The notes: generated by a model not told the origin, from the sequence alone. Shown: positions 5,535 to 14,494, counted from the first letter of the stretch. The stretch is 44,572 nucleotides of DNA from Saprospiraceae bacterium (GCA_020630895.1 JAHDII010000002.1:1-44572), one strand, 5' to 3'. Translations and numbers: made by a program.

Positions 5535-6080
5535 TATAGATTTTTCCTAATAATCCCAATAAAGCTCTAATCAATACTCTTTTCTTTTTCATACTTTTAC
5601 ACTTCATTTTACTGTAGCGGACATAACGCTTTAACCATTTTCTATACTTAGTTCTTAATAATTTAGGGGCTCAAATGACGAGATAGTCTTTTTAATTGAG
5701 CATAAGACGATTCTACACTTTCCCATAAAAGTTTGACATTGGTAGGATAACGGATAGAGGATTCATCACAAGTCGCATCACAAGTGATGCTATTTAGATT
5801 TTCCAATATGTTATTAATTCATCTTGCAATTTTTCAACATCTAATTTTTTTGCAATTTCAGAATGTATTTCACTTACTATTTTGTAACTCGATATTCTTT
5901 GGGATGGTGGAATGTATATCTTGAGAGAAAAAGAACTATTCGGTCCTTTTTTATAATCTTTAAGCCTTAGAGCGGATACCAATTTTTGACAAGGAACAGA
6001 TTGGTAAATCTTGCCTAAATCGCTAGACGAAAAAGATAATAATTGTTTGATTTTTAGATAATTAGGTTGATGTTGGATGC
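5535..6080 (-). pseudogene. degraded, 3'-truncated IS4/IS5-superfamily DDE transposase (DUF772-type N-terminus)
   Basis: Three out-of-frame minus-strand segments read FSSSDLGKIYQSVPCQKLVSALRLKDYKKGPNSSFS, then ITCDATCDESSIRYPTNVKLLWESVESSYAQLKRLS, then KRYVRYSKMKCKSMKKKRVLIRALLGLLGKIY. These are typical N-terminal and first-Asp regions of this transposase type. Stops and frameshifts lie between them. Only about the first third of a full-length gene remains, and it abuts the stop of 4944..5531. Confidence 0.75.
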
Positions 6081-6100
6081 TTCTAGATACTCTGAGGTAC

Positions 6101-6223
6101 AAAAAAATCCGCCGAACAAAATTACTCATTCGGCGGAACATCTAAAGGAATCAAAAATTGCTAAATACACGTATAAAAACTGGATTAAAAACGTATTATT
6201 TTTAAAGAACTTTCGCTCTTCTA
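6101..6223 (-). ncRNA. putative small RNA, unit 1 (approximate ends)
   Basis: Promoter-like box at 6229-6258, then 5' hairpin AAGAGCGAAAGUUCUU, then terminator hairpin 6108-6137 followed by U7 on the minus strand. Confidence 0.35.
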
Positions 6224-6228
6224 TTTAT

Positions 6229-6258
6229 CTAGTACAAATAGTTGTCAAAAGGTTGCAT
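6229..6258 (-). promoter_or_regulatory. ECF-type promoter-like box, repeat unit 1
   Basis: Minus strand reads ATGCAACCTTTT-N11-GTACTAG, followed by ATAA. Confidence 0.45.
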
Positions 6259-6275: not shown

Positions 6276-6398
6276 AGAAATCCGCCGAATAAAAGGTCTC
6301 TTATTCGGCGGAACATCTAAAGGAATCAAAAATTGCTAAATACACGTATAAAAACTGGATTAAAAACGTATTATTTTTAAAGAACTTTCGCTCTTCTA
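6276..6398 (-). ncRNA. putative small RNA, unit 2 (approximate ends)
   Basis: Promoter-like box at 6404-6433, 5' GAAA-tetraloop hairpin (6380-6395), terminator hairpin 6281-6312 followed by UUUCU. Confidence 0.3.
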
Positions 6399-6403
6399 TT
6401 TAT

Positions 6404-6433
6404 CTAGTACAAATAGTTGTCAAAAGGTTGCAT
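6404..6433 (-). promoter_or_regulatory. ECF-type promoter-like box, repeat unit 2
   Basis: Minus strand reads ATGCAACCTTTT-N11-GTACTAG, followed by ATAA. Confidence 0.45.
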
Positions 6434-6450: not shown

Positions 6451-6575
6451 AGAAATCCGCCGAATAAAAGGTCTCTTATTCGGCGGAACATCTAAAGGAA
6501 TCAAAAATTGCTAAATACACGTATTAAAAACTGGATTAAAAACGTATTTTTTTTAAAGAGTCTTTTACTCTTATA
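6451..6575 (-). ncRNA. putative small RNA, unit 3 (approximate ends); could also be the 3'UTR/terminator of 6637..8487
   Basis: Promoter-like box at 6581-6610, 5' hairpin with compensatory changes (6556-6572), terminator hairpin 6456-6487. Confidence 0.3.
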
Positions 6576-6580
6576 CTTAT

Positions 6581-6610
6581 CTAGTACAAATAGTTGCGAA
6601 AAGGTTGCAT
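6581..6610 (-). promoter_or_regulatory. ECF-type promoter-like box, repeat unit 3
   Basis: Minus strand reads ATGCAACCTTTT-N11-GTACTAG, followed by ATAA. The box is intact even though flanking sequence has diverged. Confidence 0.45.
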
Positions 6611-6636: not shown

Positions 6637-8487
6637 TTACAATTTTATAATTTTCTCTCTATAAAATAAACCGTTTTCTTTATTTGAAATCACTATAAAA
6701 TATATTCCTGATGTATAATGACCTATATTTATAGCCCCTCTATTATTTGTAATACTTTGATTTGTAATTAATTGACCTCTCGTGTTATATAATTGGATAG
6801 ACATATTTGTTTGTAAATCACCAATTTCATAAGAAATTTCATCTTTAGAAATTGTAGGATATATGTGAACATCTTTGCTCAATACTTCATGAATAGATGT
6901 AGAAATACAATTGATTCCCTCAGCAGCAGATGTCCCATCAAAGCTCCAATTCTCATCTATATCTATACACATAAAATCTAATACAGTAGGCACAATATCA
7001 GTATTATGAGGCACTTGTGTATAATCTGAACAAGAATATATAGTGTTATCTATTTCCCAAGAAGCATTATTCATTAATGTTCCATTTTGAGAATAAGAAG
7101 ATAAATCATTAATTAAAGTTCCTGTTCCTTCATCTAATTTCCATAGTCCTACTAAATTAGAATAATTAGGATGAGATACATCTATATTTTTACAATTCCA
7201 TTCGTTTAAAGTTATATTTCTAAGATTTGTATCCCAAATTCTAATCTCACTAATCAATCCATTAAAACTAGAAGGATAATTAGTCGTTCCATCTTGACCA
7301 ATAATTAAAGGGAAATTAGAATCAGAATCCAAAATAAACCCGCTAGTATTGAATTCTTGAATATAACCATCTTGCCAAGTAAAACTAGCTCCTGTTCTAT
7401 CAACAGAAACTGCTATATGATGCCAAGCATTATCATTAATTGTACCTCCTTCTATATCCATTCTAGTTAATAAACCATCTCCCATATTAAATTTCCAAGA
7501 AGAACCATTCGTATTCCCTGCTATTATAAAACCAGAATTAAAACCAGAATCCCAATCTTTATTAGAAATGATAGGAGCATCACTTGACCAACCATTTGTT
7601 TTTAATTTTATTTCGACAGTAAAATTTTTTTCATTAAAATTATGTTGAGGAGCATCTGCTATTTCTATATAGCTATCATTTCCATCAAGATTGATGATAT
7701 TTGTCATATTGATATCAACAATTGTTTTTTCTATGACTTCATTATTGATTAAATTGCTAGAGGCTACATAAAAAATATCTTGGCATGCTGCTTCATTACA
7801 GCCATGTCCTGTTCCAATTCCGCCATGATCTGTACATAATATAATTAACCATTCTTCATTGGAATAATTAGGTCTATTTTCTAGAGCGGTCATTATTTGT
7901 CCAACATGATTATCTATGGTTTCAATAGCTTCTAAATATTCTAAATTTGAAGGACTAAAACCAGAGGAATGTCCTGCATGATCTACATCATCTAAATGGA
8001 TAAATGTAATATCTGGATCTTCATTATTTAATAAATTTATACATGCATCCCTTACCGCAGCATCTGAATCATAAGTTTCTAATGCATCTGTTTGAGTTAA
8101 TGGAGCAATTAATATATTAATAGGTGACCAATGAACAATAGATGCTGTATATAAATCAGGATTAGCAGATTTCACATATTGAAAAAAATGGGGATACTCA
8201 ATCAAATTATTAGGAATGAATACGTTGTCTCTTACACCATGTTTATCCATCCATACTCCCGTAAGTATTGTACTCCAACCTGGTCCACTATATGTAACAG
8301 GTAAAGTTTGTGCTTCATAACTAGTGATACCATTTGCTGCTAAGGCATCCATATTTGGAGTATTTGCTGCTATTGCAGCATCACCTCTAACGCCATCAAT
8401 ACCTATAATTAATGTTTTTCGATTGTTTTGAGCTGATAAAATAATTGTACTGGCTAAGAATAATAAAAGATGTATTAAAAATTTCAT
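6637..8487 (-). CDS. secreted type I phosphodiesterase/nucleotide pyrophosphatase (alkaline-phosphatase superfamily) with a LamG-like lectin domain and T9SS C-terminal domain
   Basis: Signal peptide is present. LIIGIDGVRGD, YSGPGWSTILTG, HLDDVDHAGH and LCTDHGG are metal/nucleophile motifs of the Phosphodiest family. The middle region (AWHHIAVSVDR...GLISEIRIWD) looks LamG-like. The C-terminus HIYPTISKDEISYE...GIYFIVIS is a T9SS CTD. Confidence 0.8.
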   Translation of the reverse strand: MKFLIHLLLFLASTIILSAQNNRKTLIIGIDGVRGDAAIAANTPNMDALAANGITSYEAQTLPVTYSGPGWSTILTGVWMDKHGVRDNVFIPNNLIEYPHFFQYVKSANPDLYTASIVHWSPINILIAPLTQTDALETYDSDAAVRDACINLLNNEDPDITFIHLDDVDHAGHSSGFSPSNLEYLEAIETIDNHVGQIMTALENRPNYSNEEWLIILCTDHGGIGTGHGCNEAACQDIFYVASSNLINNEVIEKTIVDINMTNIINLDGNDSYIEIADAPQHNFNEKNFTVEIKLKTNGWSSDAPIISNKDWDSGFNSGFIIAGNTNGSSWKFNMGDGLLTRMDIEGGTINDNAWHHIAVSVDRTGASFTWQDGYIQEFNTSGFILDSDSNFPLIIGQDGTTNYPSSFNGLISEIRIWDTNLRNITLNEWNCKNIDVSHPNYSNLVGLWKLDEGTGTLINDLSSYSQNGTLMNNASWEIDNTIYSCSDYTQVPHNTDIVPTVLDFMCIDIDENWSFDGTSAAEGINCISTSIHEVLSKDVHIYPTISKDEISYEIGDLQTNMSIQLYNTRGQLITNQSITNNRGAINIGHYTSGIYFIVISNKENGLFYREKIIKL

Positions 8488-8523
8488 TCTAGATTTTATT
8501 AAAGTTTAAGAAAAGGGGAAATT

Positions 8524-8561
8524 AAACAAAATCCGCCGAACAAAACTATTTGTTCGGCGGA
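8524..8561 (-). terminator. rho-independent terminator of the sigma/anti-sigma operon
   Basis: 13-bp stem tccgccgaacaaa / tttgttcggcgga with a 4-nt loop, followed on the minus strand by AUUUUGUUU. Confidence 0.75.
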
Positions 8562-8623
8562 AAAATTTAAACCTACTTTTATAAAATCATGAGAAAGTAT
8601 AAATACTTTCCTTTGTGCCATTT

Positions 8624-10147
8624 TTAAAATCGGTAAGCTAATCCAGCTTCCAAACCGACACTGAAAGGATATGTTTGACCACCACTATTAAAAGTAGTCT
8701 TTTTTGTTAGCCCTTCAAGTGTCGGTTCTACGAAAGCCGTTAGTTCATCACTAACTCTATAGTTTAGACCTACACCCATTAAATAACTTAAAGATAATTT
8801 ATCTTTAAGGGGTTCCTTACTTATATAAGAAATATTATGAAAATATACATCTTCATCGTATGTTCTTAAATGATTTACTTTTATATCTTCTTTTAAGGAA
8901 ATATTACCTACAATTCCTCCTTTTACAGAGAAAAATAAATCTCCTCTACCTATATTATATTGAGCAATAACAGGAATTTCTAATTCTCTTTTGTTATAAC
9001 TTAATTCTGCTAACATAGGAATGTTTCTACCTTCTTCTACTATAATATTGGGTTCTCTTACAGTGTACATTTTTACATCTATATTACCTACTGAAGTTTC
9101 CATATTATATTGAGAAGGGCTATATAAATTTTCATCGGCTAAAGGTACTTCTAACTCAGATGAAAACGCCATATTACCTGCATGTCTTATATTCACACGA
9201 CTTTCATCATAACGAAGTCCTGTATAAATGCTCAAATTTTTATTAATAGAATATCCTAAACGTACTCCAATATCATAAGGTAATTCTATAGATTCATCAT
9301 AATTTACCTTTTGAGTAATAGCTGGATTAGGATTAGAATATTTATGTACGAGCATTTGTGGTGCATAACTTGCGGCTACATACCATTTTCCTCCATCCAA
9401 TTCTTTAATCTTTTTCTTTCTCTCAGCAAGTTTTATAGAAGGAATTTCTTCTTTTAAATCTACTTCTAAAGAAGGAAAACTAATAGATGGTAATGCGTTT
9501 AAGTTTGTTTTGGTCAAAAGACCCTTTTGATTTGATGTATTATTGTCTTCTATAATATCTTCTTTTACATCATTTTGAATTGTTGTTGTATTAGAACTAT
9601 TGTCTTGGTAAACTACAGTTGTATTATTATTTTCTTTTGTAGGAAGTATTGGAAAATAATTTTTTGTTGATGATGAGGAAGATTTATTTTGATTTCCTAC
9701 TGTGATTACTGGAGGTTTTTTACCATTATTTCCTAATTGGTTGACTTCAATATTTCCATTATTTCTAGTAGGAATTATTTTATTAGAATTGGTAGTATTA
9801 TTTTGATTACTAGAATATTGAGTTTCCATATAATTTTTAAATGAAGAAATTTCTTCATTTAAACTAGAAATACTTCCTTTACTTTCTTCTAATTGAGAGC
9901 TAATAGCATCTAATTTCTTTTGATACTGATAATTATTAAAGCCTAAAAATAGAATTAAACAAGCTGCAACAGCAGAGCTTGTCCATATAAATAAAGGTCG
10001 AATAATTGATTTAGATTCGGGTTTAGGAGGTATTTTGGATTCTATCCGATCCCACATATCTCCTCCTGGAATATCATTGTATCCCTGAAGGCGATCACGG
10101 AAAAAGTTTTCCAAATTATCATTATCATTATGTAGATTTTCTTTCAT
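8624..10147 (-). CDS. putative anti-sigma factor-like protein: N-terminal cytoplasmic segment, one TM helix, Asn/Ser/Thr-rich linker, C-terminal outer-membrane beta-barrel-like domain
   Basis: Lies immediately downstream of the ECF sigma gene (17-nt gap). TM segment is LFIWTSSAVAACLILFLGF. A coiled-coil-like stretch is present. The C-terminal ~260 aa have alternating beta-strand character and end in ...GLEAGLAYRF, an aromatic terminus typical of OM barrels. Confidence 0.6.
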   Translation of the reverse strand: MKENLHNDNDNLENFFRDRLQGYNDIPGGDMWDRIESKIPPKPESKSIIRPLFIWTSSAVAACLILFLGFNNYQYQKKLDAISSQLEESKGSISSLNEEISSFKNYMETQYSSNQNNTTNSNKIIPTRNNGNIEVNQLGNNGKKPPVITVGNQNKSSSSSTKNYFPILPTKENNNTTVVYQDNSSNTTTIQNDVKEDIIEDNNTSNQKGLLTKTNLNALPSISFPSLEVDLKEEIPSIKLAERKKKIKELDGGKWYVAASYAPQMLVHKYSNPNPAITQKVNYDESIELPYDIGVRLGYSINKNLSIYTGLRYDESRVNIRHAGNMAFSSELEVPLADENLYSPSQYNMETSVGNIDVKMYTVREPNIIVEEGRNIPMLAELSYNKRELEIPVIAQYNIGRGDLFFSVKGGIVGNISLKEDIKVNHLRTYDEDVYFHNISYISKEPLKDKLSLSYLMGVGLNYRVSDELTAFVEPTLEGLTKKTTFNSGGQTYPFSVGLEAGLAYRF

Positions 10148-10164: not shown

Positions 10165-10701
10165 TTAAATTAAAATTTTTTCTAAAGCTTTTCTTAAATT
10201 AGCTTTAGCCCTAGATAATTGTGATTTTGATGTATTCACACTAATTCCTAATTGTTCTGATATTTCTTTATGAGAATATCCTTCAATTACATATAAATTA
10301 AAAACCACTCTATACCCTTCGGGTAATTTCTGCATCAATCGTACCAAATCTTTTGCTTCTAAATCACTTACTATATCTTCATTAGATGGTATAGCTTGAA
10401 CGGCTTCATCGGAAAAATCATTAAATACAAGATTTTTTCTTTTTCTAATATACCTCAAACAAGAATTGATAACTACTCTTCTAATCCAACCTCCAAAAGG
10501 TCCAATAGGCTTGTATTGATACAAATCAGAATATACTTTAATAAAAGCTTCTTGCATCATATCTTCTGCTTCTGCTCTATCTTTAGCATATCGCATACAA
10601 AGCCCAAAAACATCTCTTTTAAACATATTATACAGATCATACTGCGCTTTTCTTTCGCCGTTAATACATCCTTTGATAATATTTTGTTCTGTTTGTTTCA
10701 A
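10165..10701 (-). CDS. RNA polymerase ECF-type sigma-70 family factor
   Basis: Region 2 is RAEAEDMMQEAFIKVYSDLYQY...FGGWIRRVVINSCL. Region 4 is GYSHKEISEQLGISVNTSKSQLSRAKANL. The ORF track starts at 10764, but that ATG lies inside the promoter-like box. I prefer the in-frame TTG at 10701 (MKQTEQNIIKGCING...), so the start is uncertain. Confidence 0.85.
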   Translation of the reverse strand: MKQTEQNIIKGCINGERKAQYDLYNMFKRDVFGLCMRYAKDRAEAEDMMQEAFIKVYSDLYQYKPIGPFGGWIRRVVINSCLRYIRKRKNLVFNDFSDEAVQAIPSNEDIVSDLEAKDLVRLMQKLPEGYRVVFNLYVIEGYSHKEISEQLGISVNTSKSQLSRAKANLRKALEKILI

Positions 10702-10754
10702 ATGCAATGTTATTTGAACCTTTTGAAAGATTTTGATTAGGTTTGTATGCTTAC

Positions 10755-10784
10755 CTAGTACCATTTAAGATAAAAAGGTTGCAT
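10755..10784 (-). promoter_or_regulatory. candidate autoregulatory ECF-type promoter of the sigma gene
   Basis: Minus strand reads ATGCAACCTTTT-N11-GTACTAG, followed by GTAA. It is identical in sequence and spacing to the box in the three tandem units. The layout TGCAAC-N16-GTA resembles ECF -35/-10 architecture. Confidence 0.5.
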
Positions 10785-11106
10785 CAAAAGGTAATTTTTT
10801 AAAATAATTCTCTTTTTATTGTATAAAATACAAAGTTTAATAGTCAATATAATTACGAATTTAATGGTGTGTCTTATATATTTCTTTGTGATTCATAAAA
10901 CTTAATTCTTCTAAAAAGAATTTGTAATGATATTGAGTTTTTAAAACGAATACTTTCACAACATAATACAATAATGCTTTTTTTTGCTATTTCATTGTGT
11001 CAACTTAACCATTTCTTATTAAGAGCTTAACTTTTTTTTATGACTTTTGCTGTTTTTGAAGAAGTCAAAGCACCAAATTTATTTATAAAACTAAAATTGA
11101 TAAGTG

Positions 11107-11544
11107 ATGAAACAAACAATGAAAATTTTCGGTGCTACTTTAATGTTAGCTTTAATGATGAGTACAGTAGTAATGGCTCAAGATCATGTTAAAAGACAAA
11201 ATCCACAAGGAGAAAAACCTAGTCCTGAAGAAAGAGCAGAACGTATGACAACCAAAATGACTCAACATTTAGGATTGAATGATTTACAAGCAGAACAAAT
11301 TGGTATTATGAATTCTTCTTTTACTTCTAGTGTTGCAAGTATTCATGAAAGTAATTTAGAAAAAGAGCAAAAGAAAACAGCTCTAAAAGAAGCTTTTTCA
11401 AATTATGAAGGTCAAATCCAAAATGTTTTGACTGAAGAACAATTCAATAAATTTTTAAAAGCGAAAGAACGTCGTTTAGAAAAAAGAAAAGATCGTAAGA
11501 ATGGTTCTTGTTCTGGAAAAGGTAAAAAACATACAAAGCCTTAA
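11107..11544 (+). CDS. periplasmic protein with LxxxQ-type repeats (Spy/CpxP-like; possibly DUF4890)
   Basis: Signal peptide ends ...VVMAQD. Repeats include LGLNDLQAEQI and VLTEEQFNKFL. The C-terminus is basic. Divergent from the ECF sigma gene. The track start is GTG at 11104, and an ATG lies at 11107. Confidence 0.55.
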   Translation: MKQTMKIFGATLMLALMMSTVVMAQDHVKRQNPQGEKPSPEERAERMTTKMTQHLGLNDLQAEQIGIMNSSFTSSVASIHESNLEKEQKKTALKEAFSNYEGQIQNVLTEEQFNKFLKAKERRLEKRKDRKNGSCSGKGKKHTKP

Positions 11545-13099: not shown

Positions 13100-14494
13100 T
13101 TATTTTAAGCTACCAATCATATCTTTAGGTTTTACCCATTTATCGAATTCTTTTTCTGTAAGGTAACCTAAATCTACAGCGGCTTGTTTTAATGTTGTTC
13201 CTTCTTTATGAGCTTTTTTAGCAATTGCAGATGCTTTATCATATCCTATTTTAGTATTTAAAGCTGTGACTAACATTAAGGAATTGAATAAATTGTGATG
13301 GATTCTTTCTTCATTAGGAGCTAAGCCAACAATACAATTATCATTAAAAGAAAGACAAGCATCACCAATAAGTTGAGCAGACATTAAAAAATTAAAAATC
13401 ATCATTGGTTTAAAAACATTGAGTTCGAAATGACCTGTCATTCCTCCAATATTAATAGCTACATCATTTCCGATGACTTGAGCCATTGCCATTGTTAAAG
13501 CTTCTGCTTGAGTTGGATTTACTTTACCAGGCATAATAGAAGAACCAGGTTCATTTGCAGGAATAATAAATTCTCCTATTCCAGAACGAGGACCTGATGC
13601 CAACATTCTAATATCATTACCAATTTTCATTAAAGAAACCGCTACTGTTTTTAAAGCTCCATGAGCTTCTACAATCGCATCATGAGCAGCTAAAGCTTCA
13701 AATTTATTGGGAGCAGTTTTAAAAGGAAGTTTAGTTAATTGAGCAATATGTTTAGCTACTTTTTTATCATATCCTTTTGGAGTATTTAAACCTGTACCTA
13801 CGGCAGTTCCTCCTAGTGCTAACTCACTCAAATGTTCTAATGAATTTTTAATCGCTTTCATGCCATGATCTAATTGAGATACATAACCTGAAAGTTCTTG
13901 TCCCATAGTTAAAGGAGTCGCATCCATAAAATGGGTACGTCCAATTTTAACTACTTTCATGTATTGTTTAGATTTTTTATCTAAAGTATCTCTTAATTTT
14001 TGAATACCAGGAAGCGTAATATCTACTAATTTTCTGTAGGCTGCAATGTGCATGGCTGTAGGAAAGGTATCATTAGAAGATTGAGACTTATTGACATCAT
14101 CATTAGGATGAACATATTTTTCTTTATCGGATAATTTTCCTCCATTTAATACATGGGCTCTATTAGCAATCACTTCATTCACATTCATATTAGATTGTGT
14201 ACCTGAGCCTGTTTGCCAAACGACTAAAGGAAATTGATCATCTAATTTTCCAGCAATAATTTCATTACAAACTTTACCAATTAAAGTTGCTTTCTTTTTT
14301 AATAAAACACCACATTCTGCATTGGTTAAAGCGGCAGCCTTTTTTAAAATAGCAAATGCTTGAATAATTTCACGAGGCATCATTTGTCCTCCTATTTTAA
14401 AATTTTGTTTAGAGCGTTGGGTTTGTGCAGCCCAATATTTATCAGAGGGAACATTAATATATCCTATACTATCTTTTTCTTTACGAAATTTCAT
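13100..14494 (-). CDS. fumC: class II fumarate hydratase
   Basis: 464 aa with the signature [13 protein letters not shown] and a full-length fumarase/aspartase family pattern. Confidence 0.95.

Follow-up and report, generated by a model that had tools for sequence, protein, structure and literature searches.

An ECF sigma factor gene and a tandem array of three short units carry the same promoter-like box, and this box probably drives both the sigma/anti-sigma operon and three ~125-nt non-coding RNAs, most likely trans-acting base-pairing sRNAs. This reading comes from comparative analysis of the sequence of a 44,572-nt stretch of DNA from a Saprospiraceae bacterium (GCA_020630895.1 JAHDII010000002.1:1-44572), referred to below as the window, and of related loci in other genomes.

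The box, ATGCAACCTTTT-N11-GTACTAGNTAA, the 3′ half of which reads GTACTAGrTAA, has exactly four matches in the window, all on the minus strand. One copy lies upstream of the sigma gene and one heads each of three tandem 175-nt units, in agreement with the first-pass annotation, which had reported the same box with identical spacing at the sigma gene and the three units. The features of the locus, with the evidence for each, are as follows.

10751-10784, minus strand: putative autoregulatory ECF21-type promoter (box pattern, orthologue conservation, −35 match to Pecf21_up4014)
10165-10701, minus strand: ECF sigma factor gene, ECF21-like, 178 aa from TTG 10701 (Pfam, NCBIfam, BLASTP, homologue lengths)
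8624-10147, minus strand: anti-sigma factor gene, dual-membrane-spanning (Dma/Reo) type (PF13568 match, architecture, homology to the partner in the related locus L001)
8532-8561, minus strand: intrinsic terminator of the sigma/anti-sigma operon (CCGCCGAA...TTCGGCGG stem as in the unit terminators)
6577-6610, minus strand: unit 1 promoter box (pattern match)
6451-6576, minus strand: candidate sRNA unit 1, ~126 nt, predicted ends (folding, terminator, alignment)
6400-6433, minus strand: unit 2 promoter box (pattern match)
6276-6399, minus strand: candidate sRNA unit 2, ~124 nt, predicted ends (folding, terminator, alignment)
6225-6258, minus strand: unit 3 promoter box (pattern match)
6101-6224, minus strand: candidate sRNA unit 3, ~124 nt, predicted ends (folding z = −4.2, terminator)

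The pattern finds no match in 100 dinucleotide-preserving shuffles of the window. When it is relaxed to TGCAACC-N15-GTAC and one mismatch is permitted, these four sites come back and no others, against 0.18 expected, and a looser scan with (G/T)(C/T)AAC(C/T)-N16-18-ACT adds only four sites, all of them poor and intragenic. Between the sigma box and the unit boxes, the −35 halves share 12 of 12 positions and the −10 halves 10 of 11, while the spacer shares only 3 of 11 and the flanks are unrelated. Matching halves around a diverged spacer and between diverged flanks point to a recognition site held in common rather than to the copying of a stretch of DNA. The earlier description of the match as 22 identical positions around a spacer of the same 11-nt length, with unrelated sequence downstream and an extent beyond chance, is upheld on each of these points.

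Rarity of the box extends well beyond the window. Across the GTDB species-representative genomes (596 Gb), among which the source genome is apparently not included, ATGCAACCNTTT-N11-GTACT has 110 exact matches; 74 of these fall outside Bacteroidota, 68 of them inside long ORFs. As most matches are intragenic in unrelated taxa, the box is not a dispersed repeat. Among the Saprospiraceae matches, those in L035 and L064 are sigma and RNA boxes already known, L098 is a new sigma locus whose leader spans 275 nt, and L051 has a single intragenic site; strict boxes also occur inside orthologous membrane-protein coding sequences of four Saprospiraceae (L019:2757, L059:3947, L113:6357, and L124:5723). 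This last set is a coding-sequence coincidence, to be filtered from regulon scans. An intergenic box, ATGCAACCATTTCGGAGTTTGCGGTACT, also occurs at L018:1150-1177 (minus strand; MAG-69, the genome of L002), 164 nt upstream of a TatD-like hydrolase gene, and could be an extra regulon member or a chance match.

The gene behind the first box encodes an ECF sigma factor, as had been proposed. The ORF at 10165-10764 (minus strand, 199 aa) matches Pfam Sigma70_r2 and r4_2 and, with 108 bits, NCBIfam sigma70-ECF (TIGR02937); its score against NCBIfam Sig70_bacteroi1 is 100.5, under the cut-off of 126.4. Its class was assessed by BLASTP against five reference sigmas (from Rhodius et al., 2013), and among these five it is nearest to the ECF21 members, with 36% identity to both ECF21_2825 (1e-42) and ECF21_1280 (9e-38), versus 27% to ECF03 (2e-20) and 25% to E. 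coli RpoE (1e-16). As such, the protein appears to be ECF21-like. The best relatives returned by a metagenome scan with the sigma protein are at most 59% identical to it.

The sigma gene likely starts at TTG 10701, as the first-pass annotation had suggested, and the 199-aa ORF from ATG 10764 is likely an over-extension. Profile alignments of the longer ORF begin only at residues 22-25, the closest database homologues are mostly 178 aa long, and the sigma genes called in L001, L002, and L004 have a TTG start in the same place, followed by a common (M)xQxEQNIIKGC. The ATG of the ORF track (10764-10762) does fall inside the promoter spacer, as had been remarked, immediately 5′ of GTACT. L001 and L004 also have an ATG within the spacer, there out of frame with the sigma gene, which argues that the in-frame ATG in the window is accidental and that TTG 10701 is the start.

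It is very likely, given its conservation and its resemblance to a published promoter, that the box is the cognate promoter of the adjacent ECF21-like sigma. In the window, 50 nt separate it from TTG 10701 downstream, and it points the same way as the sigma gene and the anti-sigma gene that comes next, with its −35 element GCAACC at 10782-10777 and its −10 element GTACT at 10761-10757. The box is conserved across the family, with a copy ahead of the sigma start in each of the close orthologues examined. In 11 orthologous loci, TGCAACC-N15-(G/T)nACT is found 40-280 nt upstream of a TTG or GTG sigma start, with variable spacers and flanks. Its −10 element is GTACT in L001, L002, L004, and L098, GCACT in L005, L012, L014, L125, and L207, TAACT in L205, and TTACT in L206. 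The check put forward with the original observation, whether orthologous sigma genes carry the same box, therefore has a positive outcome: the box is kept at the same spacing in 11 loci, amid diverged spacers and flanks. The box of L098 (326-353) stands ~275 nt before the sigma TTG (start ~629), compared with 40-110 nt in the other loci. Farther afield, among 80 more distant relatives from metagenomes, many have GCAAC(C/T) at a distance of 50-125 nt before the gene, and their −10 elements are subclade-specific (CGTCT, CGATT, GCATC, CATCT). Two loci, L143 and L182, have extra boxes of their own locus-specific type ~55-65 nt upstream of protein start codons, a spacing typical of ECF regulon promoters.

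A second line of evidence is the ECF21 promoter Pecf21_up4014 (Rhodius et al., 2013), which contains ...AGGCAACCCTTTTTCATCCGGCTTCGTCTATATC... and has the form AGGCAACCCTTTTT-N-CGTCT. Its −35 (GGCAACCCTTTTT) is matched by the −35 half of the box, and the two share an extended −35 of the type GCAACC(C/T)TTTT. The published extended −35, GCAACCCTTTTT, occurs exactly in L001 and L004 and is one base off the window box. The −10 elements differ, with GTACT 15 nt after GCAACC in the window versus CGTCT 16 nt after GCAACC in Pecf21_up4014, such that the box departs from the published promoter (GGCAACC...CGTCT) by one position in spacing and by two bases in the −10. Of the AAC-N16/17-CGT layout to which the first-pass annotation likened the box, the AAC and the spacing are present (AAC-N16-GTA); the −10, however, is GTACT (GCACT, TAACT, or TTACT in relatives) and not CGTC, although more distant members of the family do have CGTCT or CGATT. 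The proposal that the sigma is autoregulated from the box gains support from the conservation among orthologues and from a −35 equal to that of the ECF21 promoter. By analogy with the −60 to +20 numbering of Pecf21_up4014, transcription would start near 10750, 6576, 6399, and 6224. These comparisons refine the promoter motif of one ECF21 subclade to TGCAACCnTTT-N11-GyACT, in addition to correcting one start codon.

The protein partner of the sigma is consistent with this assignment. In the 507-aa anti-sigma, a short cytoplasmic N-terminus is followed by a single TM helix, a long linker rich in N/S/T, and, at the C-terminus, an outer-membrane beta-barrel; the hydrophobic segment, IIRPLFIWTSSAVAACLILFLGF, and the linker were read directly from the sequence, and the C-terminal 258 aa match PF13568 (OMP_b-brl_2) with 28.3 bits (cut-off 27). 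Over its full length it is 36% identical to its counterpart in L001, which also carries PF13568. The Dma family has this very architecture, with a cytoplasmic N-terminus, a TM helix, a disordered linker, and an outer-membrane barrel (PMC10927553). Known pairs of an ECF21 sigma and a dual-membrane-spanning anti-sigma are Das1-Dma1 of B. thetaiotaomicron and EcfO-Reo of B. fragilis and P. vulgatus, and the window resembles them in gene order (sigma, then anti-sigma), in the domain arrangement of the anti-sigma up to the OMP_b-brl_2 barrel, in a sigma nearest to ECF21 among the references, and in a putative autoregulatory promoter upstream of the sigma gene. ECF21/Dma systems are among the strongest-induced stress systems of gut Bacteroidales in vivo and control vesiculation and toxin tolerance. 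The pair in the window belongs with systems that have been characterised before (ECF21 Das/EcfO with Dma/Reo), which makes autoregulation the expectation, and an autoregulated ECF21 promoter combined with a Dma-type anti-sigma is itself already established, with the exception of the subclade-specific −10. Known ECF21 targets are a handful of lipoprotein genes, mainly of the NigD type, one of which adjoins das1-dma1. Unlike these characterised regulons, the window yielded no NigD match among the 17 proteins scanned. RNA-guided transcription by dCas12f with sigma-E (PMC13472631) was considered for the locus and rejected, given the Dma-type partner and the lack of Cas12f/TnpB-like domains in the neighboring ORFs scanned.

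About 4 kb from the sigma gene, the tandem array has a 175-nt period, 2.9 copies, and 95% matches. Each unit consists of a box, ~125 nt of non-coding sequence, and the CCGCCGAA...TTCGGCGG hairpin. In unit 1, folding predicts a 5′ hairpin that pairs AAGAGU with ACUCUU, another hairpin, and, at 6457-6486, a terminator hairpin whose U-tail is weak; UUUAGCAAUUUUUGAUUCCUUUAGAUGUU is left unpaired. In unit 2, GAAGAGC is predicted to pair with GUUCUUU around a GAAA loop to form the 5′ hairpin, and the terminator hairpin, located at 6282-6311, likewise has a weak U-tail. Unit 3 ends in a strong terminator (6109-6136), a 13-bp stem spanning ~6108-6137 and followed by U7, which is the only one of the three flagged by terminator prediction. 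Units 2 and 3 share 98 identical nt, so the array may be a recent, possibly neutral, duplication. Unit 1 departs from units 2 and 3 only in the spacer of its promoter and in the opening ~50 nt of the predicted transcript. Despite several substitutions there between units 1 and 2, the 5′ hairpin is preserved, and no change falls in the −35, the −10, or the ~100 nt at the 3′ end. One base pair separates the unit terminators from the operon terminator, having changed on both sides (C-G versus U-A), and the resemblance hints at a common origin of the operon terminator and the unit 3′ ends.

A small protein encoded in the units was considered and rejected, as the sole reading frame has 23 codons and extends across the terminator hairpin as far as the promoter that follows. 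Rfam searches at gathering thresholds returned no match in the window or in seven related loci. A permissive search brought up the VrrA, NsiR1, and microRNA models below threshold, and homology to these was rejected because the terminator or the inverted repeat drives the scores: VrrA reaches 30.6 bits against a gathering threshold of 50, from the terminator and a U-rich stretch rather than the structure, and NsiR1 21.7 bits against 39, from the terminator alone. No homologue of the unit bodies outside the window was found in any of the fetched loci by BLASTN-short and nhmmer. Among 33 start regions in the 44-kb window, no predicted target was better than those of shuffled RNAs, the best duplex having −21.0 kcal/mol versus −24.6 ± 2.9 for the shuffles. 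The units are likely to specify sigma-dependent, stable RNAs. The unpaired and invariant UUUAGCAAUUUUUGAUUCCUUUAGAUGUU is the candidate pairing region. That these RNAs regulate envelope-protein mRNAs is a more tentative proposition, which we regard as possible and somewhat doubtful.

A box in front of a putative non-coding RNA is also present in close relatives. In the four closest loci, L001, L002 (/L003), L004, and L207 (Saprospiraceae MAGs plus a contig without assignment), the anti-sigma gene is closely followed by a second box in the same orientation (two such boxes in L004), where chance would supply ~0.03 such boxes per 20-kb locus, as estimated from base frequencies. Behind each second box come ~200-320 nt in which no gene is called, with a conserved unpaired AGTTTCATCCGAG and one or two intrinsic terminators. 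The box-headed RNA ends at a covarying terminator in L001, L002, and L004, the L207 contig ending before that point; pairing in this final terminator is kept with both-side changes in 5 of 11 pairs, and in L001 and L004 another terminator-like hairpin precedes it. Moreover, the type of −10 agrees between the sigma box and the RNA box, being GTACT in both in L002 and GCACT in both in its sister L207, a covariation that is expected if one sigma reads both. The connection drawn by the first-pass annotation between the box and sRNA-like units would thus apply to the four closest relatives as well, where a box likewise stands before an apparently terminator-bounded non-coding RNA. Among the sigma loci examined, an RNA-heading box is found in this closest clade only; the few second boxes in the fetched flanks of distant sigma loci all precede protein-coding genes and not sRNAs.

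Each box-headed RNA in L001, L002, and L004 has a gene for a small lipoprotein (LFSCKDDD...) behind it, 320-420 nt from the box, and may have a leader function there. The genes lie at L001:12640-13122, L002:12263-12760, and L004:6448-6903 and 7280-7738, the whole module of box, RNA, and gene being duplicated in tandem in L004. Their products are unrelated to the NigD type, have a signal peptide ending in LFSC and followed by KDDD/KED, like the Bacteroides acidic lipoprotein export signal, and gave no Pfam match and no homologue in the window. Close relatives also carry a conserved non-coding element, RNA-A (...TGCAAAAAGTTG...GTAGATT..., with a terminator), right behind the stop codon of the anti-sigma gene and without a preceding ECF box (L001:12100-12240, L002:11630-11730, L004:5895-6010, and L207:2640-2760); it could be a 3′UTR-derived or an independent sRNA. 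At the same position, the window (8487-8624) has a hairpin and a terminator with little sequence similarity to it. Homology of the units to RNA-A is not claimed, as the alignment shows just a AATTTTTGATT-like stretch and similar terminators.

The surroundings of the locus are partly conserved. A DUF4890 gene (11104-11544, plus strand) and a fumarase gene (13100-14494, minus strand) flank the sigma locus in the window and are also present in L002, L004, and L005, which indicates conserved synteny; L206 likewise has the DUF4890 gene. The MFS transporter gene found between DUF4890 and the sigma gene in L002, L004, and L005 is missing from the window, and only the window has a T9SS phosphodiesterase/LamG gene (6637-8487) separating the units from the anti-sigma gene. 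Right downstream of unit 3, a decayed fragment at ~5663-5803 (minus strand) matches positions ~131-173 of an IS5/ISNCY transposase profile (E 2.5e-5), and the 115-aa ORF at 5794-6141 is probably spurious. The fragment suggests an insertion or rearrangement downstream of unit 3, where relatives carry the lipoprotein gene.

We envision the following circuit. Envelope stress would release the ECF21-like sigma from its Dma-type anti-sigma, and the freed sigma would read an extended −35, TGCAACC(T)TTT, a 15-nt spacer, and a −10, GTACT. It would amplify its own operon by positive autoregulation, from a transcript with a leader of ~50 nt, translation from TTG 10701, and termination at 8532-8561. The same sigma would also initiate at the three identical promoters 4 kb downstream, giving three ~125-nt RNAs that end at the CCGCCGAA...TTCGGCGG hairpin. 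By analogy with MicA/RybB/MicL, VrrA/MicV, and FoxI/FoxJ, these RNAs would form a threefold-amplified non-coding arm of the stress response. Whether the ECF21/Dma system more generally has a dedicated sRNA arm, using the sigma's own promoter, adjacent to the operon, fast-evolving, and here tripled, is in our estimate an evenly balanced question.

Even with genuine ECF promoters, the units might be something other than sRNAs. They could be duplicated promoter-plus-leader relics of a lost or moved ECF gene, such as one for a small surface lipoprotein, or cis-acting attenuator leaders, and we consider this unlikely. In favor of such an explanation, each box-headed RNA of L001, L002, and L004 precedes a small lipoprotein gene by 320-420 nt, the L004 module has itself been duplicated in tandem, and known ECF21 regulons consist mainly of NigD-type lipoproteins, one of them adjoining das1-dma1; in the window, a transposase fragment and not a gene comes after unit 3, and the identity of units 2 and 3 over 98 nt fits a recent duplication. 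However, units 1 and 2 are directly followed by the promoter of the next unit and hence cannot be leaders. The −35, the −10, and the terminator are intact in every unit, the substitutions between units 1 and 2 leave the 5′ hairpin intact and do not touch the last 100 nt, and a strong covarying terminator separates the box from the lipoprotein gene in L001, L002, and L004. There is also a precedent in FoxJ, which too was first misannotated as a 5′ UTR.

A different objection concerns the reader of the box, which might be a paralogous ECF sigma or a DNA-binding regulator and not the adjacent sigma. Bacteroidetes genomes average ~22 ECF sigmas, overlapping specificities are known, the −10 departs from canonical CGTC, and our view of the source genome spans 44 kb. 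We nevertheless judge this improbable, considering that the box tracks the sigma orthologues in at least 11 loci at a promoter-like distance, that the −10 variant shifts jointly at the sigma box and the RNA box (L002 versus L207), and that the −35 half fits the model of the ECF21 promoter, a model built from the sequences that precede ECF21 genes. The most radical alternative denies promoter function altogether and attributes the box to chance or to a dispersed REP- or MITE-like repeat. Although the units are repeats, and the CCGCCGAA...TTCGGCGG hairpin is also found 3′ of the anti-sigma gene, this notion has a negligible probability and is effectively refuted by the lack of shuffle matches, the restriction of sigma-box/unit-box similarity to the two promoter elements, the retention of the box upstream of orthologues without flanking similarity, and the low count and intragenic position of the matches in the collection-wide scan (110 in all; 68 of 74 outside Bacteroidota inside long ORFs).

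The preferred reading, a sigma-driven set of sRNAs, has close functional parallels. Envelope-stress sRNAs dependent on sigma-E are established in Proteobacteria and Fusobacteriota, and comprise MicA, RybB, and MicL in Enterobacteria, VrrA and MicV in Vibrio, and FoxI and FoxJ in Fusobacterium. These are read from the promoter of an envelope-stress ECF sigma that also autoregulates its own operon, with several sRNAs per regulon. Like them, the units appear from their sequence to be short stand-alone non-coding genes with an ECF-type promoter and an intrinsic terminator. Unlike them, the units have no sequence or structure homology to MicA, RybB, MicL, VrrA, MicV, FoxI, or FoxJ, their sigma is ECF21-like rather than ECF02, and the three copies are near-identical and in tandem rather than distinct; the RNA chaperones of Bacteroidota also differ from those of the sigma-E sRNA hosts. 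Multicopy organization has its own precedents in Listeria LhrC1-5, cyanobacterial NsiR1, PrrF1/2, and OmrA/B, tandem sRNAs in which each copy has a promoter and a terminator, LhrC being induced by cell-envelope stress. The window shares with these arrays the head-to-tail repetition of a promoter, a ~100-nt sRNA, and a terminator. It has no homology to them, and they are controlled by two-component systems, HetR, or Fur, in contrast to the ECF sigma of the window.

The first-pass annotation held that envelope sRNAs of the sigma-E-dependent type are not known from Bacteroidota, and a limited literature search, which included the EcfO/Reo and Das/Dma literature, found no report of an ECF-dependent sRNA in this phylum. 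An ECF21-dependent sRNA arm is a plausible addition to the known sigma-E-dependent kind. If true, the arrangement would add a post-transcriptional layer like the one to which the proteobacterial sigma-E response owes much of its effect, and would extend the pairing of ECF sigmas with sRNAs to a phylum without Hfq or ProQ. It would also offer candidates with predicted promoters, 5′ ends, and terminators for the study of trans-acting sRNAs in an Hfq-less phylum.

One further element from the collection-wide scan belongs to Pontibacter. In Pontibacter humidus (L048:5428-5700, plus strand) and an uncultured Pontibacter (L116:7058-7300, minus strand), ATGCAACCCTTTT-N10-GTACT is followed by a ~170-nt conserved non-coding element with a hairpin bearing compensatory changes (GTTTAC/GTAAAC versus CCTGC/GCAGG), an invariant AAATGTGTTTTAGGTGTTAAAGTGAACAT, and a GC-rich terminator. 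Some 250 nt downstream of the element comes dnaK, with a sigma-54-like TGGCAT-N5-TTGC of its own. The element may represent a second family of sRNAs driven from an ECF box, in a different order of the phylum, and suggests that the arrangement is not limited to one family.
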